Program-made: the position numbers and the translations under genes
Origin: Naegleria gruberi
Taxonomy: Eukaryota
Direction: 5' to 3' (one strand)
NCBI GenBank assembly: GCA_000004985.1
Contig: GG738881.1
Length of the DNA stretch: 64,000 bases
The notes under the pieces: model-generated
Seen by the model: only the letters and a program-made list of their open reading frames with translations
Databases searched by the model: none
What the model was told of the DNA's origin: nothing
Part shown: one piece after another, positions 17,786 through 48,889 of the stretch
Layout of the letters: each line of letters starts with the position of its first letter
Position numbering within the stretch: position 1 is the first letter of the stretch

Positions 17786-18421
17786 ATGAATACTGATAAT
17801 CAAGGAGAGTATTATAGGAGGAGAGTTTCTATTAAACAAAGGGATCAACTTGTAAAAAGAATACGTTCCGAATCTAGTTGTTGTCATTTCCATAGTAGAG
17901 CAACAACTAGAAAAAGAGCTTTTTACAATTTTCAAAACAATATTGAATATTATGTTAACTGCATGGACATACGTTATAATGAAGATATACACTCCCTGCT
18001 TGATGCTATCAAGCTGTTTCGAGAGTATGTTCTTACTGGGTTTCCAGTAGAGTTGTTCGAGCTGTCTGGCAAGTGGTTAAACACCACAAAGGTGGCAAGA
18101 TATTTCAACATCACTGGTCTTGATGGACAGAACTATGTAGAAGGGTTTCCAGAATTAAAATTGACTGATTTGAGAAATTTGCAGACCAATGTTTGTAATC
18201 TAATGTTGCAAGCTTTAAAAGATGGTGTGAAATTTTCATTTGGAACAATTTCTGCAAGTCTAGTCGATTTATTCCATGAGATCAAGGAGAGTTTTGAACT
18301 CTTCATGAATATTAATAATTCCTGCATGCAGGTCGATCAACTAGCCCCAAAGATATCAACTATTATGGCTCATGCAAAAAAAAGAAATTCAGAATCTTTC
18401 CATTTAAAAAGTAAGTTGTGA
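17786..18421 (+). CDS. Hypothetical protein (211 aa); no recognisable domain.
   Basis: ORF with ATG in a cagccagaATG context. It lies in the gap between the carrier gene and the downstream gene. May be spliced to ORF 18668-19042. Confidence 0.3.
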   Translation: MNTDNQGEYYRRRVSIKQRDQLVKRIRSESSCCHFHSRATTRKRAFYNFQNNIEYYVNCMDIRYNEDIHSLLDAIKLFREYVLTGFPVELFELSGKWLNTTKVARYFNITGLDGQNYVEGFPELKLTDLRNLQTNVCNLMLQALKDGVKFSFGTISASLVDLFHEIKESFELFMNINNSCMQVDQLAPKISTIMAHAKKRNSESFHLKSKL

Positions 18422-18667
18422 TGGATTCCTTTTGATTTACCTGGGCTAATGTCATTTTTCAAGTATTGGACTTATTTTGTAATAACATTGATATTTTCAA
18501 TGGTTTACCAACTGAATATCTCAAGAATTTGATACCATACACCTTTGATGTTAATTATTTTTTTTTCGTAAAATTATGGTGGTATTGCATTAATTCATCT
18601 GAAGTCCAACAAGAAAGAATAGAATTTTTATTCAATATGAAAGCTCTTCATTGATGTATTATCACAT

Positions 18668-19042
18668 TTGATAGAAAAAAAGAATGGTATCCAACTGGTT
18701 ATTGAAACTGAATGTTTTCCCAATTATTTTCAATCCCTTTTTGAAGGACAAATTACTTCAAGTTACGAAAGCAAATTTAATCTGATTTTAGGTAAAATAA
18801 TTGGAAAAGGAAAAAGGCAACACCTTATTAAAATACTCAATTATAGAAACAAAATGGGAGAGAGCTATATCCTTCACTACATTAGAAAGAAATCCACGAA
18901 TGAGTCTTTTCCAACGTTTAACCAGGTATTCACTAAAGCTTTTCAAGATATTCACAAATTGGATTTGGCTGATTTTGATGCACCAAAAGAAAAGCAAATT
19001 GTTGCTAGCTCGAATGAGGTTAATTGTGGTCGTTATCAATAA
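18668..19042 (+). CDS. Hypothetical protein (124 aa), possibly a downstream exon of the preceding gene.
   Basis: ORF only. Confidence 0.2.
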   Translation: MIEKKNGIQLVIETECFPNYFQSLFEGQITSSYESKFNLILGKIIGKGKRQHLIKILNYRNKMGESYILHYIRKKSTNESFPTFNQVFTKAFQDIHKLDLADFDAPKEKQIVASSNEVNCGRYQ

Positions 19043-24071: not shown

Positions 24072-25653
24072 ATGGGAAATAACAAGACAAGGGAAAATGC
24101 ACAAATATCGAAAATAACTTCCAATTCTACTTCTTCTTCTGGTGGAGTTGGACGTTTCGGTAGTCAATCGGCAGCAGCATCATCATCTGCATCGAATGGA
24201 TTTTTGCGAAATGAAAGTGCTTCATCTTCGTTTATAGTTTCGAATAGAGAATTGAATAGTGTAATAGTCGGTTCGAAAATGGATTCAGAAATTTATTTGT
24301 ACGGTTATACGAGTACTTTATATTATGATGGTATCAATCCTGGGTGTGGTGTGACAAAGATCATTGATAATATCAATTCGGATGATGTTATTCGTTCTAG
24401 GGATTTGTGTGTTCAATCAGAAAATAATGGATTGAGTGCTGTTAAATTAATTCTAAAGCATACTTTGGTTTATAAGGTCATTTCTGGAAGATTACATTCA
24501 CATATTATTACAGCTGATGGCAGAATACTGAGTTTTGGGTCGAATAATCATGGTCAATTAGGTAGGTTAACAATAGCTTTGAAATTCATTTAAATTTCGT
24601 TGAAACTGATTGGCAATGCAGGTTGTGGAGTTGTTGGAAGTTTGAAAGCATCATATGGTATAGTGAGGGCAACTGGAGAAATTACCAATCATTTCATTAT
24701 TGATGGAGCAGCAGGTGGTTATCATTCTCTATTTATCACATCTGAAAATAAGGTGTTTTCTGTTGGAGGAAACTCTAGTAGACAATTGGGTGTAATAACA
24801 ACTGATTCGACAGCAACTGCCACTGCTATTGAAATTCCAGAGCAATCATTTGATGGAAGAAAGGTTGTGGCATGTTCAGCTGGTGATTCTCACAGTTGTT
24901 TCTTAACTAGTTGTGGAAATATCTATTTTGCTGGATCTAATTCTAATGGTGCATGTGCAGGGAATTCTGGAAATAATAGACCAATATTATTGGTGAATGA
25001 AATTCTTGCAAATGAATTTCCAATTCAAATATCATGTGGCTATGACAATACAATGATTTTGTGTCAGAGTGGAAATATATATGGTGTTGGATGTAATAGT
25101 TGTGGACAATTGGCAAGTAAGTAATTGTAATGATTCAATAATTATTGAATGAGTTATTCCAGCTGATGATGGTGATCATACCAACTTTGGAGATATTCGA
25201 AAGATTTATAACGGAGTTAAAGGAATTGTGTGGATTGGATCTGGATACTTTTGCTCTGCTGTTTGTGCAGAGGATGAATGTTATTTTGCTCCCTCACAAA
25301 CTACCTATTCTAAACTGAGTAAGATTAATCCAAATGCTATTGCAGTCGGTGTTGGTGATTCTATCATTTTTGCAACTAATGAGATTAATCAAAATGGAAA
25401 ATTTGGTAAATTGTACGTCATGAGTTCAGGTAAGGCCACAGATATTACAGGAGATTTCTCAATTGATTCAGTCTCATCAAAAATTGAGTTTAGTGGTCAA
25501 AGAGATGTCTATATTGCATATGTCTCAAAATTTGATCCTGCCTTTATGATTTCTCATCATTTCCTTCATTTGGAGAAGATTTTGGATTTTGTCAAGGGAA
25601 ATTCCTCACAATATTCTGGCTCAACTGTATTTTCTGATATTCAAATTCAATAG
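24072..25653 (+). CDS. RCC1-repeat (regulator of chromosome condensation-like) protein, 3 exons: 24072-24562, 24623-25116, 25163-25653.
   Basis: RCC1 blades ...ADGRILSFGSNNHGQLG | (GTAGGT...tgcag, 60 nt) | CGVVGSLKAS...GGNSSRQLGV...AGSNSNGACAG...VGCNSCGQLA | (GTAAGT...ttccag, 46 nt) | TDDGDHTNFGDI.... Exon phases are consistent; the three track ORFs are the three exons. Confidence 0.7.
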
Positions 25654-29068: not shown

Positions 29069-30472
29069 TTATTGGTGAATGAGATCAGAGATGGCTCTTT
29101 GAATATCTCCTTCATACTTATTCAATAAGGTAATATTGAGAATGTGATTGGTGAAACCCATTTGATTCAATAATTTCAATTCTTTTTGATATTTGTGTGG
29201 AATGGTTGTTTTCACAACTGGTTCTTCTTCTTCTTCAGGAATTGATTCAATAATTGGATCTTGATTTTCAAGAAGTTGATTGGAAACTTGTTGAGCTTGT
29301 TGATTGACTGATTCTGTTTCTTCTTGAGCAGCAACTGTTTCTTGTTGAACTTGTTCAGAAACTGATTCAGTTGGTTGATCTTCAATTAAATTGGAGAGAA
29401 GCAATGAAGTTGTAATATTTGGAGTATTTTCGGCAACAATTTCTTGTTCCTTCAATTGTTCTTGAATTGATTCTTCTTCTTTTGGTTGAGAAACAACAGC
29501 TGCAATTGGAGAGGTTTCAATTGGTTTCTCCTCTTGTTTCTTTTCCTGAGTTTATGATGGTTGACTCTTTTGTTCTTCTTCTCTCATTTCCTTCATTCTT
29601 TGAAGTAATAATTCTCTGAATGATTGAGGTGTAGAAGTAGTTTCTTTCTTTTCTTTCTTTGGTTCCTCTTTCTTTGGTTGTTGTTGAGCTTCATTACTTG
29701 TTGGAATTCCCAAAAGATCAGCAAGATTAATTTCAATTCTTCTCACTTTTGGTTTTGTTTGAGGAGTGGAAGCAGAAACTTGTGGGAAGAATGATTGTTT
29801 TGGTTGAGTTGACTTGTCATTTGAAAATGCAGATCTAAAAGCATTTTCAATCATATTTTCCCAAGATTGTTCTGATTGTTGTTGAGGAACTTGTTTCTTT
29901 TGAGATTCAACTCTTGGTTGTTGTAATTGAGCAAATAAACATGATGGTTGTGAAATTCTATTGAAAGTAGTATGTTGAGCTGGTTTGATTGATTTCTTTT
30001 CGCAAATAATCTTAGTCAATTTGCCCTTCATTAATTTCAACAAGAAATGGAAATCTCTTAAATTGGTCAATGAAACCAAATCATCTTCATCATCAACATA
30101 ATGTAATTCATATTGTCTCATATCGATGGAATGTTCTCTCAATACTCTATCAAATAATTCGAAACTTCCCTCATGATTAGAATCAATTTCAAATCTCAAT
30201 ACATTTGAAGCACTATTCAAATTGTGATTGAACTTTCCTTCAAAAATATAAACCTTGAATGGAACATTTCTTTCAACTTGTCTTGTTTGTGGAGAAATCA
30301 TATATGAAAGTGGAATTTTTTGTACATTATTTGCGAAATGTTGAGTTGGGATATATTGATAATCATTGAATGATGAAGTTTCTCTCAAATTTGGATAAGA
30401 AACTTGTCTTGGAATAGTTTGTTGAGGTTGGAAAGCAGCTGCAGTAGAAACTGGAATGTGAAAGAAACTCAT
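29069..30472 (-). CDS. PB1 + UBA domain protein (p62/SQSTM1- or NBR1-like selective autophagy receptor), interrupted by one in-frame TAA at 29552-29554.
   Basis: ATG at 30472. PB1 with OPCA motif: VPFKVYIFEGKF...YELHYVDDEDDLVSLTNLRDFHFLLKLMKG. Long K/E/Q-rich linker. C-terminal UBA: HKYQKELKLLNQMGFTNHILNITLLNKYEGDIQRAISDLIHQ*. The two track ORFs are in the same frame, separated only by the TAA. Confidence 0.65.
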
Positions 30473-33011: not shown

Positions 33012-34526
33012 GTGGAAAGGAGAGAAATCAGAGAAATATTTCAACTCCACAACAAGTATCTGTTGCATCCATTACACGAAGAACCTGTAGCAGAGGAAAA
33101 AATTCAACTTGTTGAAGGGAAGCTTGGACAAAAGATACCTTTTTATTTGAGAGAGTTTATTAAATTATCGGATGGTAGAACTAATGATGACGGAAATGGT
33201 GACACTTCAAATGATATTTCTTCATTACATTGGAATAATTTCTTGAATAGATTTGATGAATGGAAAATAGGGGAGAGAGGATTGATACTTGCTTCTAAGC
33301 AATATGCAAACTTGTGGATTGACTGGGAAAATGGAAAATTGAGTCTTGATTCTGCAAATTCATGGAATGAAGGACCATTTACTATTATGAACTGGTTAAA
33401 GATGCCATCTGATACGATTAATCCATTTGATATGAACAATTTATGTAATGAATCGAATAGAATGGATTTGAAAACAATTTTAAGAGGTTACGGCTCTCTA
33501 TTTGAATTATTACCAGAAAATCTTCGAAATGACAGAGATATTGTTAAATCTGCTTTGGTTTCTTCTGGTTTAGCCTTTAATTTTGTGAGCAAAGAGATTG
33601 CAGAGGACCGTGAGATGGTAGAATGGTATTTCGAAAATGGAAACACTGATTTTAGATATATTTCTGATAAATTTAGAAAGGACAAGGGAATGATAATGAA
33701 ATATTCCACTAAGTGGTCAGATGCTGATATATCCCTTTTACAAGACAAGGAAGTGGCAATGCATTACTGTAGAAAGAATCAAATTCCAAATTAAATTATA
33801 TGTGAGGACCTGATTATTGAAGCTGCCAAATACGGACAAGAAAATTACTTTACAAAAGATCTATTTAGTAATGAACTTGTTTTCAAGCTACTCGATTATA
33901 TAATCCCAAAAGAAAGAGGAAACTTTTCGAGAGTTATTAAGGAAAATGAGCAAAAACTAGACGAAAAAGTATTGAAAAGAATTGCAGAATTGAATCCAAT
34001 CTTTGCCCTGCACAATCTGTCCCACGATGATGATGACGATGATATAATTCTAACAAAAGATCGTGTACTGACCTATATTAATGAAATTGAGGATGAAACT
34101 GTAAAAATTGACAGCTTACCATACAAATGGAGAAGAGACAGAGACGTGGCAAAAGCAGCCCTTTTACGAAACTTTGGAAATTATAATTATCTCGATCAAG
34201 AATTAATGACAGATGCAGAGTTTTTAAACCCAATACTCGAGATTTCAAAAGTCCCAATTTACCTTCTATTCACGCGCGATAGTCAATTTGCAAAGTTTAT
34301 CTGTTCCAATAAGGAATGTTTAAGGAAAATGTTAAAACGAAACCCTTCATTGCTCTGTTATGTTCCATGTGAGTTGGATGAGGAATTTGTTAATTCATTG
34401 GATTTTTATTCGTGTAATAGTACCATTGCTGAAATACTTTACAATTCCAAGTATGAAATTTATTGTAAAGTAGTGAAAAGGTTAAACTGTGCGAGAACGA
34501 ATCTTGACGAAAGGGGTTTAAATTAA
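33012..34526 (+). CDS. DUF4116-type repeat protein, paralogous to 1877-3496. The two track ORFs are one reading frame broken by a single TAA at 33792-33794. 5' end unresolved.
   Basis: Repeats LRNDRDIVKSALVSSGLAFNFVSKEIAEDREMV, FRKDKGMIMKYS, LQDKEVAMHYCRKNQIPN*IICEDLIIEAAKYGQENYF, WRRDRDVAKAALLRNFGNYNYLDQELMTDAEFLNPILEIS, LRKMLKRNPSLLCYV. The frame stays open from 33795 straight into the second ORF. The track's start at 33012 is GTG, and the first in-frame ATG is far downstream. Confidence 0.55.
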
Positions 34527-34692
34527 TGGAAACTAAACAAGGACAATTCGAAACACAACATGTTATTATCATGTATTATAAATACATCAGCGTGCTACAT
34601 CCAGATCAAGGGAGATTATACCTTCCATCTAATGACTTACCATAAAAGAAACAAATTAAATTTCGTTTAGGATAACAAAGTTTCCTTAAAAA

Positions 34693-37231
34693 ATGTCATC
34701 TTTACACCATCAATCCCCAGCTCAAGACGATAACTCTGCTCATAATCGAATAAATGTCTTGTTTGACACTTCTCTCGTAGTGTTTAATCACAACGAAGAT
34801 ACAGTAGACGAAACATCGGAAGAAATTAATATTTTCTTATGGATAAAGACGAAACTTCTCTCCACCATCCGAATGATAGTTTTCGACTATCAAGACAAGG
34901 AAAGATTAGAATTATTCAATAACAGACAAGAAATGCTCTCCAAACGTTTACCACTTTCAGGAATTTTTCATTTAATAATTCTCATTCTCCTGTCAATGAT
35001 AATCGAAAGGTCTGAAGGAGAAGAATCCATTTACTTGTTTCTTATATTGACTGTCATTGAATTCTTTGGAAATATTGGAGTAATTGTCTTGATTTTGAAA
35101 ATGGAATTGCCAATTCTTAATACGGAAATTTGTAATTATTGTAGATTAGTTGCAACTTGTATGATTCGATTGATTTTACAGATTTATTATGGACCATTGT
35201 TTCCTGTGTGGATTTTACAGGTTTATTCAATGATTATTGTGTTGAATGCTTATTATTTCAATAGGGGACCAGCTGTGATTAATTGTTTGATTGTTATTGT
35301 GTTGGGAGCTGTTTCGACTGTACTGAGTCATGTTATTCATTTCGAATATTTTGGAGATAGTTCAATAGAATTTGGACATGAAAGAGTTTGTCATCCGTGT
35401 CGACATTTTGAATATATTCATGAGAGCCAAGTTTCCAATCTTATTAAGGTCATTACATTGCAATCAGTTCTTTGTGGAATAGGTCTCTTATTTTCAGATG
35501 TTTCCATGGAACAGGATGAGAGAAATATTTCACAACAAGTAGAAATTGTCAAGGGAAGAATTTTGAATGAGGAAAAGACCAAATTTATTGGCCATTTGAG
35601 TCATGAAACAAGAAATCCACTCATGGGAAGTATGTTTTTAAATTGAATCGAATATATTTAATTAGCAATAATGATTAGTTATGGGAGCTGCTCAAATTCT
35701 GAAATTTGATTTGGAACAGCAAATGAAACGGAAGAATGTTGCTCTGCAGCATAAATCAATTGTTGAGAAAGTGGATGATATTTACAATAGCTCTGTATTG
35801 TTGTTGCAAATATTGTCAACTTCATTGCAGATTAGTTCTTCAGAGATGGGTGGAGTTCACTTGCAGGGAAGTGAATTTAACATGTTGGAGCTGGTAGAAA
35901 CGATTTGCTCAGTGTTTAGTTCAATTGCTGTGGATAGAGGCATTTCTTTGCAATCTTTTATTGATATTGTGAATATTCCAGATATGATTTATGGAGATAA
36001 TACAAGAGTTTCACAAATATTGATGAATTTTGTTTCGAATAGTTTGAAATATACTCCTAATAAGGGGTCAGTTACTGTAAAATGCACTGTTTCAACTCAA
36101 GAAGAGTTGAACGAGTTTAGAATTGATAAGAAGAAAACTAGTGAACTCATGATGTGTTATCCTGCCGAAAAGTTAGATGTGAATGATTTGATATTTATAA
36201 CCTTTACATGTGCTGATAGTGGATGTGGAATGAATTCCAATCAAATTATCAACCTTTTTTCGAGTAATCAACAGGCCAATCCTTCCATGAGGCCTACTTC
36301 TAGGGCTAGACGAACAGGAAATGATCAATTTATTGAGAGTCATGGGTTTGGATTGAAAATCTCAAAGCATTTGATTGATTTAATGAATGGTAAGATTCAT
36401 ATTAGTAGTGAAATCGGAAAGGGGACAACTATTAAGATTATCATTCCTTTCTTCAAACAGGATAAGAAAGGTATGATTCTCGAGGAACAAATTGAACAAT
36501 TGAGAAATATTTCAAAAGAGAAGGAACTATCCCAAGTTACTGTATCTTTGCTGGATCAAAATAGGATATTAATTAAATATTTGGAATATCTACTTCCAAA
36601 TAATGTAATGATAATCGAGTCAGATGTTGAAAGGGAAGAATCTATGCAAGTGAAAACGATTGATAGAAATTGCTCAGTTTCTCTATTGTCAAAAGGTGAC
36701 ACTACCTCATTGAATTATGAAACTCTATTCCTAGCAAGACCTTTCAAGGTGAAAGATATAATTTCAGTATTGATTGAAAGCATGGCTGGAGATTTTGAAA
36801 TCAACAGTTCAGAAACAGGTTCAGAAATTACAAAGATTCGATCGAGTCGTTCTCTTGACTCATTCACATGCAATATTCTTGTGGTGGATGATAATTCAAT
36901 TAATAGAAAGGTTGTGCACAGATTGTTACAAATTATTGGATATGAGAACATTGATTTTGCTGTGGATGGTCTGCAAGCATTCGAGAAGTTCAAATTGTCC
37001 AACTTCCAGTTTGTATTGATGGATCTAGAAATGCCCAACATGAATGGAAAGGAATCTTGCGAATTAATGAGAAAGTTTGAAATGGAAACCAAACGAAATA
37101 GGGCTGAAATTTTTGCAGTAACTGGAGACATGACACAATCTATGGCAACTTGTGCTGATTTTGATAATATTCTATTCAAGCCAATTTCCAAAGATTCCCT
37201 CAGTTTGACTCTCAATAAGAACACTGACTAA
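34693..37231 (+). CDS. Membrane-bound hybrid sensor histidine kinase (TM sensor region, HisKA, HATPase_c, REC receiver), 2 exons: 34693-35629 and 35679-37231.
   Basis: aaaaATG start. N-terminal ~230 aa has 5-6 hydrophobic helices. H-box FIGHLSHETRNPLMG | (GTATGT...gattag, 49-nt intron, phase 1) | IMGAAQILKF. N-box region (ILMNFVSNSLKYTPNKGSV), G-box GFGLKISKHLIDLMNGKIHISSEIGKGTTIKIIIPF. Receiver ILVVDDNSINRKVVHRLLQIIGYENIDFAVDGLQAFEKF...FVLMDLEMPNMNGKES...IFAVTGDM...FKPISKDSL. Confidence 0.8.
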
Positions 37232-37250
37232 TTTATGTACATATTGAGGT

Positions 37251-39450
37251 TTATTCATCGTGATGGAAAAAGTCATCATCAAATTCGGTGGCGCCAAAAA
37301 CGTCTCTATCAGAATCTGGGAACTCGAAAACATTATCAATATTTGGAGTTTCTGATAATTGGTTTTGGGTATTGCTGTTACTATTTGTAACACTTGGTGT
37401 ATTGGAATCGAGAATTGTTGGTGTTGAAGTTCCTGTTGCTGAATTATTGGTAACTGGAGTACTATTTGAGATTTGTCTATTCATGTCAGTATTATTAACG
37501 TTCATACTATTTGATGTGGTTGATTGCTCATCGTTCAATAAAGATCGTAACTTTTCTTCCACATCTCTACCAACTTTAACTAGAGGGGATTTCAGGAAAT
37601 TTTGAATGGTTTGTTTGGCTTGAGGGGTGGTTGTGGAAACTGGTGCTGGAGAACTCAGCAAATGAGTTATCATTTGAGAAATTTCAGTTCCAGCAGGTCC
37701 ATTAGTGTTAAACATGTTAGGCATATTGGAGTTTGAATCAGTTTCATTTCCAAGTCCAAGATTAACATTCATTTGTTGTTGCTTTTGTGGAGAGAGTGTA
37801 TTAGTACTGTTAAAGTTTGTTTGTTGTGGGTTTGTTGGTTGTTGTTGTTGTTGTCTGTACATGTTTTGTTGTTGTTGAGCAAAATTCAACACTGCATTAT
37901 TATTCATATTTTGTGGAATCATACCATTATTGGTTTGTTGAAAATTATTGATTCCAAGTACTGCTGCATTTTGAAGGTTAATACCAAAATTACCAGCGCC
38001 ATTAACGCCTGGATACACAAATGCTCCATTGTTTGTACTCATACCATTATTGACTTGAATGGTATTTGGTTGATTTGGAATCATTGTGAATGCATTTTGA
38101 CTGGTAACTGGTGAAGATGCAGAATTGTAAGGTGATTGAATATTTCCAGACATAATGCCAATACCTCCCATTGGTTGTTGTACACTAATCATTGAACCAC
38201 CTGTTGGTGTGGATGGCATTTGATTAACAGTGTTATTTTGAACAAGTAAACCTTGTTGTTGCATCATGCTTGCTTGTTCTTTAACCAGTTGATTGAATTG
38301 TGAAATTTGTTCCTTGATCAATAACCTAGTATTGTAAGCTTTGAAAAATTCAGGATTTTGTTGTTCTAATTTGCACCACATCAAGTTAATAAAGGCTCGT
38401 TCAATATTCTCGTATTTCTTACATAAAAAATCCATTGTCTCTTCTTTTGAAAGATAAAGCTTTAGGCATTGCTCAATCAATTGTTGTACCAATTTGATTT
38501 GCTCAACAGAGAATCTTCTCATTCCGTTGGCAGACATACCTGATTGTGTATTTGTTGTTGTATTGGTATTTGATGACAAAACTCCTCCACTATTATTACT
38601 AAGAGGTGTAGTTGATCGTTGCTGTGCTGACATGGTAATTGTATTTGGAACAGTACCACCAGTCATTTGACTCATAGGAGTTGATGGATTTCCCATGTTT
38701 GTCATATTATTCATGTTATTCATAGCATTTACATTGGACATATTCATATTGGCCATGTTTGTCATATTCATGTTATTAATATTCATCGTGTTGGCATCCA
38801 TACCATTGGTAAAACCTCCCATCATTTGTTGTTCGTTGCTAATCATACCATTACCATTAGTTTGTTGCACAATGGTTGTATTATTTGGCATTACTTGCTT
38901 TCCAGGATTTCTTAGATTATTATTGTTGTTTGGGGTGGTTAGTTGTTGTTGTAGGAATTGTAATAAATAGTTACTAGGGTCATTATTATTGTTCATGTTT
39001 TGCATTGGTATATTATTGTTTTGTACGTTCATGTTCATATTCATATTCATAGCTTGGCCATTGGCATTGTTGAGAGGTGTTTGTCCGTTCATCAAGTTAT
39101 TATTATTATTTTGATTCATAGGTTGCTATTGTTATTTTGTTGTTTTACAGTGGTTGGATGATGACATAGTCCACCAAGGAGATGAAATAGATTAATAAAT
39201 GTTAAATAACACTATTACTATTTGAAATACTTACTTGAAGAGCCCTGAACGTGTTGAAGAGTTGTTGGTTGTTTGCCATATTGTTCATGTTATTTGGCAT
39301 TGGATTTGCAACAACTGCTGGATTCATACCCATTTGCATATTTCTATTAACATTGTTGTTATTATTCATGAATGCATTGAAAAGGTGTTGTTGTTGTGGA
39401 TTGAGAACATTGACAATATCGTTGATTGCTTGTGGTGGAATATTACTCAT
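37251..39450 (-). CDS. Asn/Gln-rich low-complexity protein with a conserved central helical domain, 2 exons: 39450-39235 and 39125-37251 (about 695 aa).
   Basis: ATG at 39450. Exon 1 ends ...LFNTFRALQ | GTAAGT; a 109-nt intron ends aacaatag; exon 2 begins QPMNQNNNNNLMNGQ.... Extreme N/Q/M composition (NMNMNMNVQNNN, QQQQQPTNPQQTN). Non-repetitive core ...FSVEQIKLVQQLIEQCLKLYLSKEETMDFLCKKYENIERAFINLMWCKLEQQNPEFFKAYNTRLLIKEQISQFNQLVKEQ. Confidence 0.65.
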
Positions 39451-44938: not shown

Positions 44939-46609
44939 CTAGTGATTTAAAAATCTATTCAACCTTTTCATGGAATGTTCAAATGCTAAACTGTCCAAGT
45001 GAAATAAATTTGAAGCAATAGCTTCGTGATGTCTTTGATGAGGAAGTTTACCACTGTCAAGTGAAAGACCTGACATGAAATAAACTGCCAAGTAAGGAGC
45101 CATAACAAGGGAGAGTGTTGTAGTTTTGAGACGTGAGAGCATGAGAGAAATGGCTGCAGTGGTACCAACATGTAACCATCCATGAGTTTGTCTTCCTTCT
45201 GTCAACATTCGTTCAATATCCAATACTTCACCCAACACAGTTGGAAGGAAAATGAAAAATGGAATAGATGAAAGCAGTCTGGTATTGTACAAGAAGTAGG
45301 ATGATCTAAACATTAAACCAAATGTTGCAAATATTCCCAATTTCTTTGCTGATTCAACACAAGACCATAATTTCATTGAGTTTTCCTCCTCTCTCAAAAA
45401 GATATATTCAGTTGTTTTACCCTTTGAAATCATTAAACCAATAGAACTCAATTTTTTAACATCTGCATAAGGACTATTACTATACATATTTTGCAACATG
45501 TTAATGAATGGTAAATTTTGATGCAGTGTCAGGGTTTTAAAAAGGTTTGGATTAGAGTACATTCTTGAAATTACTAGGGCTGAAATCATTTCATTTTCTC
45601 TTTCTCTTGTTTCAACAATTAGTCTGAAAGTATCCAATCTGTGCATTAAAGATTCATGAGAAATATTATCGGCTGAAACAACATCTAGCAAACGTCTTGC
45701 CTTAGCTTGAATAGCAGCACTTCCTTCATAGAGAATAGAATTGAATATCGTTCCTAATGTTCCGTTTGTACAAATTTCCTTAACAATCTGGGTATATTTT
45801 TCATTATTTCCATCTCCAATAGTAATTTCATCTGAGAGATCCTTTCCACTTTTCAAGACATTTAGATGCAAATCCTTATTTTCAGATAATGAAATCAAAC
45901 TTTCCAAACATGCATAATGTGAGCTTTCCAAAATAAATCCCAAATTCCACTTTAAATCTGAAGATGGACAGGAACCCATAAATGTACTTCTATTCAAGCT
46001 AATTAACATTGTTGATCTAAGTATTGGTAAAATCCTTTCCACAACATTTTCATCCACACCATTGTTCTTAATACTTGCATTCAATTCATTACTTTTAGCT
46101 TTGATTTGTAAGAGTAGAGTTTCCAATTCCTCATAAATTGAAATAAACTTTCTGTCCCGAGCAGTGGTGACCATTACATTTTCATTGGTGGATGTGCCAT
46201 CTCCTGGTAAAAGACCATACATTCCAGGAGTGGATGGTCCATCATCATATTCATCATCTCTATCATTCATTTCTGCTTCCATAAGACGTTTTTCCCATTG
46301 TTTCATTCTGTTTTGAACCAAATCGTGTAAGTCATCAACAATTTCCGATTGTTGTTTTCGGGATGATGTAATTACTTGTTGGAGAAATGAAAAGGCTGGA
46401 ATAATAGAAAGACCGAACATTAAAACAGCCTGTTTAAAACTAAATGATGAAGAAGCACCTGTTGAATTATTACTCTTTGAATATTGTCTGTATTCTCCTG
46501 ATTGATCATTGGAATTTCGGAATTTATAATTACTAAAGATCTTTAATCTTGTTGTTGGTGATGATGATTTAGCAATATGTTGTGCTGATTGAACAATTCT
46601 CTTTAACAT
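44939..46609 (-). CDS. Hypothetical protein (about 556 aa) with predicted TM/hydrophobic segments near the N-terminus and in the C-terminal third.
   Basis: The track's M at 46618 is TTG; the first ATG is at 46609 (MLKRIVQSAQH...). No motif recognised. Confidence 0.4.
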   Translation of the reverse strand: MLKRIVQSAQHIAKSSSPTTRLKIFSNYKFRNSNDQSGEYRQYSKSNNSTGASSSFSFKQAVLMFGLSIIPAFSFLQQVITSSRKQQSEIVDDLHDLVQNRMKQWEKRLMEAEMNDRDDEYDDGPSTPGMYGLLPGDGTSTNENVMVTTARDRKFISIYEELETLLLQIKAKSNELNASIKNNGVDENVVERILPILRSTMLISLNRSTFMGSCPSSDLKWNLGFILESSHYACLESLISLSENKDLHLNVLKSGKDLSDEITIGDGNNEKYTQIVKEICTNGTLGTIFNSILYEGSAAIQAKARRLLDVVSADNISHESLMHRLDTFRLIVETRERENEMISALVISRMYSNPNLFKTLTLHQNLPFINMLQNMYSNSPYADVKKLSSIGLMISKGKTTEYIFLREEENSMKLWSCVESAKKLGIFATFGLMFRSSYFLYNTRLLSSIPFFIFLPTVLGEVLDIERMLTEGRQTHGWLHVGTTAAISLMLSRLKTTTLSLVMAPYLAVYFMSGLSLDSGKLPHQRHHEAIASNLFHLDSLAFEHSMKRLNRFLNH

Positions 46610-46627
46610 TTTTTTCAAAGTGCTTTA

Positions 46628-48889
46628 TTAGTTCATTTCCAAAGACAAACCTGGATGCACTCTTGTACCAGCTTGATATTTAATTCTCTTGGCAATGACA
46701 ACATTAATAACACAACCAATATGCATTAGAATACCAATAAAGAAACAAGTAATACCTGTAATTAATAATTCCCAAGAAATACCTTTACACACAGCACCAT
46801 CTGTTGCTGTAATATAATTAGCCATATATGTACAACCAGCAACTTCTGCGCCAATTGTTTTAAGTAAGGCATGTGCAAAAGTCAAAACAAAATTGAGTGT
46901 TTCTTGTGGGAATGTGGCAATGAAATTTTGAACATTAGTTGTAAGGAGATCAATTTGAGAAAGGATATTTGATGTCAAGGTACCAAATGAACTGACCAAA
47001 GTCTTAGCAGATGCAACATCAACAATTAAAGCATCCATATTGGCATTAATAATGTTCAAGGTTTGATTGTAGGAGGCAATTTCTGCCAAGGCTGCCAGTT
47101 GAGTATTGTGTTGTAATCTGGTTGCATTCTTGAGTGTTTCACCTTCAACTTTGTCAGAGTTTGAGGCAAGTCCGGAAGGATCAAATGTTTCAAAATTATC
47201 ATACGTATAGGTAGCTGATATTTTGGCAGTGGTGAATGCATTGAGAGCATTAAGAGCAGCATCAAAATCTGTTGCATTGAAACCGGAAAAACCAGAAAGA
47301 TTATTCAATGATGAAGTACCATTTGCAAGTTTGGCCCTAGCATCAGTGAGGGTACTTGTATAGTCAACATTGATAGAGCCAATAGAAGATGTGGTCATGG
47401 AATTCTTTGCACTTTCGGTAACAGAAGAAATGTTAAAAACTGAAGCTTGGGTGCTGAATGAATCAGTTACAGAAACGAGCATACTGTTAATACCCAAAGC
47501 AGAGAATGCATCAGTACCAAATACAACATCAATCAAAGATTGACCATCTTTACAGGTAGACATGGTTGTTAACATTACAGAAACGTTTTGGAATTTGATT
47601 CCACCAGTTCCAGTGAGCATACTTGACAAAGCTTGATCACCGATAGATCCAACAGTTTTTGGACCATTTGTGCATACTTCATTGATAAGCATAAATGCTG
47701 GAACTTGAATACCTGCCAAAAGAATGAAAATCCAAGCAGTAATAAAGGCCAATGTAGTTGTAATATGTACACACCAAGTCTTTCTGAAAATAATACCAAT
47801 AAATACAAAAATGTAGATTATTCCACACCAACAGAAGAGGACAATGGAAAGTGAAACTCTAATATTTTCAGCAAGCTTGGAATAAGTCTTAGCGTCATTA
47901 ACTGTTTGATTGTTTAGGTAGGTGTCAACTGAGGATTGAATTGAAGCAATAGGTTGTTGAATACTTCCCAAAGCGCTACTGAGTGAAGGACCAAATTGGC
48001 TTGAAATTGTGTCATTGATAAGACTTTTAACTGAACTAATCTTGGTCTTGATGGTATCTTTTCCAGAATCAATCGATGATTTGGCAGATGTAATTGCTTG
48101 CAAGCCAGATGTAATGGAAGGAGAAACAGTTGATTTGATATCAGGAATTTCACTAGAGGCTGGAACTCCACTAAGTTTTGGACTAGCTCTCAAAGTGTCG
48201 ATACCACTTCTAATATTTACAACTTCCTTGTTGATATTTTCAATGGTGGATGAGTTGAAGGTGCCTAGTTGTGTGATTGTGTTTCCAACAAGAGTTGAAA
48301 TTGTATCTAGAGGTGCAGTTGCATTCAGAGCCTTATTTAAAAGTGGATCGATCGCATCTGGGAGTCCATTTAATTGAGTGGTAATAATGGCTGGGAGATT
48401 ACCAACATTTTTCAGGGAACCAGTGACACTGCTAGTAAATGTCAAAGTTTCATCAATCATGACTCTCACGTGTGTTGAACCTTGGGCAGAGAAGATCACA
48501 CCAATAATTCCCAATAGAATAAAGCAACAATAGAGCACAGCCAAGACAATAGCTGGAGCAATAAGGTGCTTTCTCTTGTAGGCCTCAGATGATGTTGGTA
48601 CATTTGAACCACAGAACCCACAACATCTACAACAACAGAATATCATTATTGCAATATAACCAATCACACCAAACAGAATGGGGATCACAAGGAAAATTGC
48701 TAAGAAAATAGCATACTCTATATATTTAGCTCCATCTAGAACCTCCTCCGAAGACGTTGGGAGGGCTGTCCTCACTGTCTTAACTTGCCCCATAGTAAAG
48801 GCAATATTCTGGGCATTTACTGTTGTAAGGATGATAAGGAATACAAATATTATGTACAAGGAAAATCTAGGGACAATTTGAAACGACAT
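46628..48889 (-). CDS. Prominin-like pentaspan membrane glycoprotein (753 aa).
   Basis: ATG at 48889. Signal peptide MSFQIVPRFSLYIIFVFLIILTTVNAQ. TM1 followed by a Cys cluster (IMIFCCCRCCGFCG). TM2, a ~250-aa Ser/Thr/N-glycosite-rich loop, TM3, TM4, a second large loop, TM5, short tail. Topology and the post-TM1 Cys cluster match prominins. Confidence 0.5.
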   Translation of the reverse strand: MSFQIVPRFSLYIIFVFLIILTTVNAQNIAFTMGQVKTVRTALPTSSEEVLDGAKYIEYAIFLAIFLVIPILFGVIGYIAIMIFCCCRCCGFCGSNVPTSSEAYKRKHLIAPAIVLAVLYCCFILLGIIGVIFSAQGSTHVRVMIDETLTFTSSVTGSLKNVGNLPAIITTQLNGLPDAIDPLLNKALNATAPLDTISTLVGNTITQLGTFNSSTIENINKEVVNIRSGIDTLRASPKLSGVPASSEIPDIKSTVSPSITSGLQAITSAKSSIDSGKDTIKTKISSVKSLINDTISSQFGPSLSSALGSIQQPIASIQSSVDTYLNNQTVNDAKTYSKLAENIRVSLSIVLFCWCGIIYIFVFIGIIFRKTWCVHITTTLAFITAWIFILLAGIQVPAFMLINEVCTNGPKTVGSIGDQALSSMLTGTGGIKFQNVSVMLTTMSTCKDGQSLIDVVFGTDAFSALGINSMLVSVTDSFSTQASVFNISSVTESAKNSMTTSSIGSINVDYTSTLTDARAKLANGTSSLNNLSGFSGFNATDFDAALNALNAFTTAKISATYTYDNFETFDPSGLASNSDKVEGETLKNATRLQHNTQLAALAEIASYNQTLNIINANMDALIVDVASAKTLVSSFGTLTSNILSQIDLLTTNVQNFIATFPQETLNFVLTFAHALLKTIGAEVAGCTYMANYITATDGAVCKGISWELLITGITCFFIGILMHIGCVINVVIAKRIKYQAGTRVHPGLSLEMN

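Follow-up and report, generated by a model that had tools for sequence, protein, structure and literature searches.

The minus strand of the window, as we call the whole 64,000-nucleotide stretch of Naegleria gruberi DNA analysed here, carries a gene whose reading frame is interrupted by one stop codon. The frame opens with an ATG at 30472-30470, runs through 306 sense codons to a TAA at 29554-29552, is open again from the codon that directly follows this TAA (29551), and continues for 160 sense codons to a further TAA at 29071-29069. A PB1 domain is encoded upstream of the internal TAA and a UBA domain, probably of the NBR1 type, downstream of it, in a single ORF. The features of the locus are the following:

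29069..30472, minus strand: whole PB1-linker-UBA gene, locus NAEGRDRAFT_69945; 467 codons with the internal TAA counted in, followed by the terminal TAA (29069-29071)
30002..30262, minus strand: PB1 domain, about aa 71-157, with an OPCA-like acidic motif and, in its first strand, an invariant Lys73
30068..30100, minus strand: OPCA-like motif YVDDEDDLVSL, aa 125-135, read from the sequence
29552..29554, minus strand: in-frame TAA, codon 307, next base A; a Gln is aligned there in both paralogues
29533..29565, minus strand: 33-nt stretch GTCAACC...ACAAG, dropped as an 'intron' by the public model and judged to be an annotation workaround
29500..29565, minus strand: 66-nt candidate intron GTCAACC...TTGCAG, 15% T and 45% A, donor GTCAAC; rejected
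29078..29185, minus strand: C-terminal UBA domain (aa 430-465), which the TAA excludes from translation; almost invariant in proteins P0002 to P0004

A previous sequence-only reading of this DNA had claimed that one TAA at 29552-29554 splits a PB1-UBA gene whose two parts share a frame, had quoted the peptide across the stop and had pointed out the OPCA motif. The minus-strand frame bears out the split, the motif lies at nt 30100-30068, and the translation contains the peptide as it was written (...EMREEEQKSQPS, the stop, then TQEKKQEEKPIETSP..., or, in another rendering, ...EEEQKSQPS, the stop and TQEKKQEEKPIETSP...). At the base composition of the window, where stops make up 7.5% of random triplets, 160 open codons would arise by chance with p ~4e-6; such a run is too long for chance, and both halves therefore belong to one gene. 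The gene is rich in Gln, Glu and Lys, and its Gln codons are CAA in 52 cases and CAG in one. With 47% of its codons a single step away from a stop, it offers a large target for nonsense changes, and about 6% of all possible single-base changes in it give a stop.

In public databases the locus is represented by XP_002674969.1 (NAEGRDRAFT_69945; hereafter P0001), which corresponds to the window protein minus the 11 residues SQPS-stop-TQEKKQE, with a K at the junction. This gap matches the exact excision of GTCAACCATCATAAACTCAGGAAAAGAAACAAG (29565-29533, 33 nt), and we judge the 33-nt public intron to be a device of the gene caller that keeps the frame open across the stop. Since P0001 matches the window protein at every residue other than the 11 excised ones, the window represents the reference sequence of N. 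gruberi, which therefore contains the stop. The GC content of the window (0.31-0.37) is consistent with the 33% published for strain NEG-M (PMC8296547).

A search with the joined protein retrieved three N. gruberi proteins at 100% query coverage and one distant protein from a Logan assembly. Identity to the joined window protein is 97% for the NAEGRDRAFT_69945 model, 85% for NAEGRDRAFT_69394 (XP_002675341.1; P0002) and 78% for NAEGRDRAFT_69380 (XP_002675426.1; P0003), the last two being encoded on another scaffold. Both P0002 and P0003 are continuous ORFs with a Gln opposite the window TAA, within SQQSQTQEKKQEEKPI; across the site they read ...EEEQKSQQSQTQEKKQEEKPIQTSP..., and 18 of the 22 residues encoded by the putative 66-nt intron are identical. 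A more distant protein, P0004 (48% identity), is encoded by one uninterrupted PB1-linker-UBA ORF (contig L001, 2563-3822), and P0008, which shares 36% identity with P0002, likewise combines PB1, linker and UBA in one protein. In the comparison with orthologous genes that had been proposed as a check, the relatives thus encode one ORF, and both N. gruberi paralogues have Gln at the position of the stop. The P0004 locus on L001 has no flanking genes in common with the window, and so gives no support from synteny. JGI metagenome contigs were scanned with the family alignment, using two family-invariant peptide patterns that would catch a close strain, and no relatives were found. Exact-match look-ups of the 306-aa product, the 128-aa product, the neighbouring 370-aa protein and the three N. 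gruberi models also returned no hits.

The PB1 assignment rests on a Pfam match in the window copy (E=1.3e-3, aa 102-157) that falls under the gathering cut-off, on a match in P0002 that passes it (23.9 bits against a cut-off of 23.6) and on a precomputed match in P0003. Within the OPCA-like motif, Y125, D127, D128, E129, D131, L132, V133 and L135 are invariant across five aligned proteins. At the C-terminus the best Pfam match is UBA_NBR1_C (E=7e-5 for the window copy and 2.5e-5 for P0004), all scores being under the 27-bit cut-off, and a PDB profile search gave weak matches to the UBA structures of ubiquilin/Dsk2 (E ~0.01-0.04). The AlphaFold model of P0002, built from a 4-sequence alignment, is of low confidence (mean pLDDT 39) and presents a bbabba succession at 70-143 and three C-terminal helices. 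A profile of four homologues found 50 proteins among 1.84 billion representatives; its informative matches are PB1-ZZ-UBA and PB1-ZZ-N_BRCA1_IG-UBA proteins, recognised via the PB1 or the UBA region.

The gene had been described as autophagy-receptor-like. This holds for its architecture, with a PB1 domain carrying an OPCA-like motif, a K/E/Q-rich linker and a C-terminal UBA that is probably of the NBR1 type, but not for the remaining domains of such receptors, since neither ZZ nor FW is present. At E<=0.01 no N_BRCA1_IG (FW) domain was detected in either half of the window protein, in P0002, in P0004 or in P0008, and the same scan finds this domain in P0040 and P0051. No ZZ zinc finger was found in the window protein, P0002, P0004 or P0008 by a scan that does find it in P0011, P0012, P0014 and P0044. 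Inspection of the alignment revealed no evident conserved LIR (acidic-flanked W/F/Y-x-x-L/I/V) across P0002, P0004 and P0008. The Naegleria protein resembles p62/SQSTM1 (PB1-ZZ-LIR-UBA) in its N-terminal PB1 with a conserved Lys and an OPCA-like motif, its long disordered linker and its C-terminal UBA, and differs from it in having no detected ZZ, only two Cys in the relevant region and no evident conserved LIR. In p62, a PB1 domain with a basic Lys and an acidic OPCA motif allows head-to-tail polymerisation. With NBR1 (PB1-ZZ-FW-LIR-UBA), the pan-eukaryotic archetypal receptor, the Naegleria protein shares the PB1 domain, its C-terminus has UBA_NBR1_C as best match, below the cut-off, and NBR1-like N_BRCA1_IG proteins are among the distant profile matches; unlike NBR1, it contains neither FW (N_BRCA1_IG) nor ZZ. 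The minimum definition of an NBR1 homologue requires an FW domain and, besides it, PB1 or ZZ, and p62 proper is considered to be metazoan-specific (Rasmussen et al. 2022, PMC9582228). By this definition we rejected the window protein as an NBR1 homologue, as it has the PB1 but not the FW domain. Judging from its domains, the family could plausibly act as a minimal PB1-polymerising, ubiquitin-binding adaptor. Independently of the stop codon, this PB1-linker-UBA family devoid of ZZ and FW numbers three copies in N. gruberi, and at least two further organisms among those sampled have relatives encoded by a single ORF. It represents a minimal p62-like architecture outside Metazoa, which may be relevant to the evolution of ubiquitin-binding autophagy receptors.

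Amid the fast-evolving acidic linker, a short segment, TPNITTSLLLSNLIEDQP (window ~29340-29400, minus strand, aa ~358-377), is kept in P0002, P0004 and P0008 (TPFLSTSQIISNYLIEDE). The motif, TPxMTTSLLLSN(L)IED, which can be followed as far as P0008, is a candidate for a short linear interaction motif. The public model of P0003 is without 23 linker residues that include TPxMTTSLLLSN, with LRNYQP at the flank instead of LIEDQP (alignment columns ~365-390); this gap may again be a way for the gene model to avoid a defect, here in the P0003 copy.

Downstream of the internal TAA, the window copy shows no sign of decay. It shares 89% identity with P0002 before the stop and 91% after it and, with P0004 as outgroup, the window-specific replacements at otherwise conserved sites number eight upstream and zero downstream. 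No further stops or frameshifts were seen in the window copy after codon 307; among the paralogue-specific peptides of this part is IETSPIAAVVSQPK, vs IQTSPTAIVVSQPK in P0002. Relative to its relatives the gene carries a disabling mutation, as expected of a pseudogene, and the absence of decay downstream shows none of the relaxed constraint that is also expected. This absence implies that the change is very recent, or is present on one allele only, or is a consensus error; the same intact pattern is expected if the T is such an error or if the stop is read through.

A second in-frame TAA is located nearby, at 33792-33794 on the plus strand, in a DUF4116 gene (33012-34526). A syntenic 3.8-kb metagenome contig (L002), with 97.9% DNA identity to window positions 33533-37316, has GAA at this codon. 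Between the window and the strain represented by L002, the DUF4116 gene differs by 5 synonymous and 17 non-synonymous changes, and its neighbours by 12:8 and 16:11. This gene is probably a decaying paralogue, and our search returned no public N. gruberi model for the locus. The TAA to GAA difference indicates that real nonsense differences, besides sequencing errors, occur in this assembly. The TAAs at 29552 and 33792 are the only two in coding ORFs of the window that are not explained by an intron.

The likely real introns of the window, chosen from the sites where excision of GT[AG]NGT...YAG joins two long open segments, served for comparison with the two candidates at the stop. There are six of them, with 35-43% T and 4-17% C:

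17282-17226: 57 nt, donor GTGAGT
18411-18674: 264 nt, donor GTAAGT
24562-24621, plus strand: 60 nt, phase 1, GTAGGT...AATGCAG, in an RCC1-repeat gene, with an in-frame TAA inside
25117-25162: 46 nt, donor GTAAGT
35630-35678, plus strand: 49 nt, donor GTATGT
39234-39126: 109 nt, donor GTAAGT

The intron of the RCC1-repeat gene, a multiple of three in length with an in-frame TAA, could pass, in a reading without tools, for the same phenomenon as the stop at 29552.

A spliceosomal intron, of 33 nt (29565-29533) or 66 nt (29565-29500), would remove the stop, and the latter had been proposed in the sequence-only reading. The 66-nt stretch exists as described, being a multiple of three with a weak donor and a coding-like composition. 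Both stretches are bounded by GT at the start and AG at the end, their lengths are divisible by three, the public annotation adopts the shorter one, and the RCC1-repeat gene demonstrates that a genuine frame-preserving intron can contain an in-frame TAA. However, the donor is GTCAAC, when all six likely real introns have GT[AG]NGT, and the candidates contain 12-15% T and 45-52% A, indistinguishable from the adjacent coding linker (14% T, 53% A) and well away from the T content of the real introns. A length of 33 nt is below that of all six window introns (46-264 nt) and far below the mean of 203 bp published for N. gruberi (PMC8296547). Moreover, P0002 and P0003 have the 22 codons of the 66-nt stretch as an open, in-frame and, as noted above, largely identical segment, which is partly alignable even in P0004 and P0008. 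Both candidates thus failed the tests for a consensus donor and for non-coding character (composition and protein conservation), and donor, composition, length and conservation as protein in the paralogues together make an intron very unlikely. A division of the locus into a PB1-only gene and a separate one for the UBA is scarcely credible. Mechanical ORF calling does list two ORFs, and the one at 29069-29455 reported previously indeed contains the UBA half in the correct frame, but its TTG start is an artefact of bacterial-style ORF calling, the frame itself running from 29551. The sole ATG 3' of the stop falls within the UBA domain, at codon 438, which leaves the 'orphan UBA' envisaged earlier with no usable start codon; the intergenic spacer would be of zero length, and every homologue is a single protein. 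Programmed or leaky readthrough, or a local recoding of UAA as Gln, would yield the full-length protein beside a PB1-only form. The frame that remains open and conserved for 160 codons past the stop would fit this explanation, as would the presence of another in-frame TAA at 33792, yet we consider it very improbable. Long ORFs of the window end with TAA in 20 cases, TGA in nine and TAG in three, which indicates the standard code and agrees with the earlier statement that TAA is a genuine terminator elsewhere in the window. The TAA-A context is ordinary, A also following 8 of the 19 other TAA ends of long ORFs, and a 111-nt segment starting just before the stop folds no more stably than its shuffled versions (z=-0.96). 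An Rfam scan downstream of the stop gave only chance-level matches and no element, and a tRNA gene search across the window found none. The TAA at 33792 lies in a gene that evolves as if neutral (5:17), hence in a pseudogene rather than in a recoded gene. Among the hits for N. gruberi and 'readthrough' in the literature library searched, none looked relevant from its title or abstract. Readthrough, also raised in the sequence-only reading, therefore finds no support in the stop context, in downstream structures or elements, or in the set of stops used. Codes in which TAA stands for Gln are known in some ciliates and diplomonads; a variant code of this type, or one with context-dependent stops, was ruled out here, as TAA ends 20 of the 32 long ORFs and is found internally in no more than two coding ORFs.

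Either the stop at 29552 is an error, or it is a single-base nonsense difference of an ordinary kind that affects one of the three recent paralogues. An error in the consensus or base calling of the reference, with the organism having CAA and making a normal 467-aa PB1-UBA protein, is possible, although we regard it as rather unlikely. It would account for the 160 intact codons downstream and for a UBA domain as conserved as in the paralogues, with zero window-specific changes, and a single-base difference suffices. Against it, a multi-fold Sanger consensus seldom contains clean substitution errors, the proportion of single-base changes that create a stop in this gene is only about 6%, and the real difference between TAA and a sense codon found 4 kb away in the same assembly indicates that nonsense alleles do occur here. 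We infer that the change is real in the organism, and we favour as the probable explanation a young nonsense allele, produced by a C to T change in a CAA (Gln) codon in the linker of a normal, intronless PB1-linker-UBA gene that is one of three recent paralogues. An ancestral CAA turned into TAA by one C to T transition would be the simplest history, given the Gln of the paralogues and the 52:1 preference of this gene for CAA over CAG. A real TAA could also be tolerated. The paralogue would then give rise to a UBA-less isoform with PB1 and half of the linker, accompanied or not by a little readthrough product, and this isoform could join the two full-length paralogues in assemblies through PB1, capping or modulating the filaments that they form. 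We hold this to be very doubtful; if true, the isoform would be a natural dominant-negative regulator in a heterolobosean receptor family of minimal PB1-UBA type, with neither ZZ nor FW.

On the favoured reading of a young nonsense allele, translation would end after residue 306 and the product would consist of PB1 and about half of the linker. It would be devoid of the conserved linker motif and of the ubiquitin-binding UBA domain, since both lie downstream of the stop, and would presumably be non-functional or degraded; the mRNA would have a 3' UTR of ~480 nt or more. The window copy is thus most likely a null or truncated allele of very recent origin, an incipient pseudogene, with two intact-looking paralogues elsewhere; three paralogues 85-97% identical to the joined window protein were counted as available redundancy. 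Naegleria has been described as a mainly heterozygous diploid (PMC9928731), and the stop may be one allele of a heterozygous site. As in young pseudogenes of duplicated genes, a single disabling substitution affects one member of a recently expanded family whose other copies are intact, with a parallel at 33792; unlike them, the window copy shows no relaxed constraint, and its status as a pseudogene is putative. For curation, XP_002674969.1 (NAEGRDRAFT_69945) carries an artificial 11-residue deletion that results from the 33-nt intron drawn over the stop. The locus should instead be entered as a pseudogene or truncated allele or, should the reads show CAA, as an intronless gene of 467 aa.

Two other places in the window present neighbouring ORFs in close succession. 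At 46607-46630 (minus strand), the prominin-like ORF (46631-48889) ends in a tandem TAATAA and is followed 18 nt on, in the same strand and frame, by a 556-codon ORF (ATG 46609) in which Pfam found no match; at this junction either the spacer is extremely short or another gene is interrupted or fused. On the plus strand, the 49-nt GTATGT...TTAG candidate intron at 35630-35678 would join a 317-aa ORF (34693-35646) to a 516-aa HATPase_c/Response_reg ORF (35681-37231), and the two ORFs probably form one two-component-type gene.
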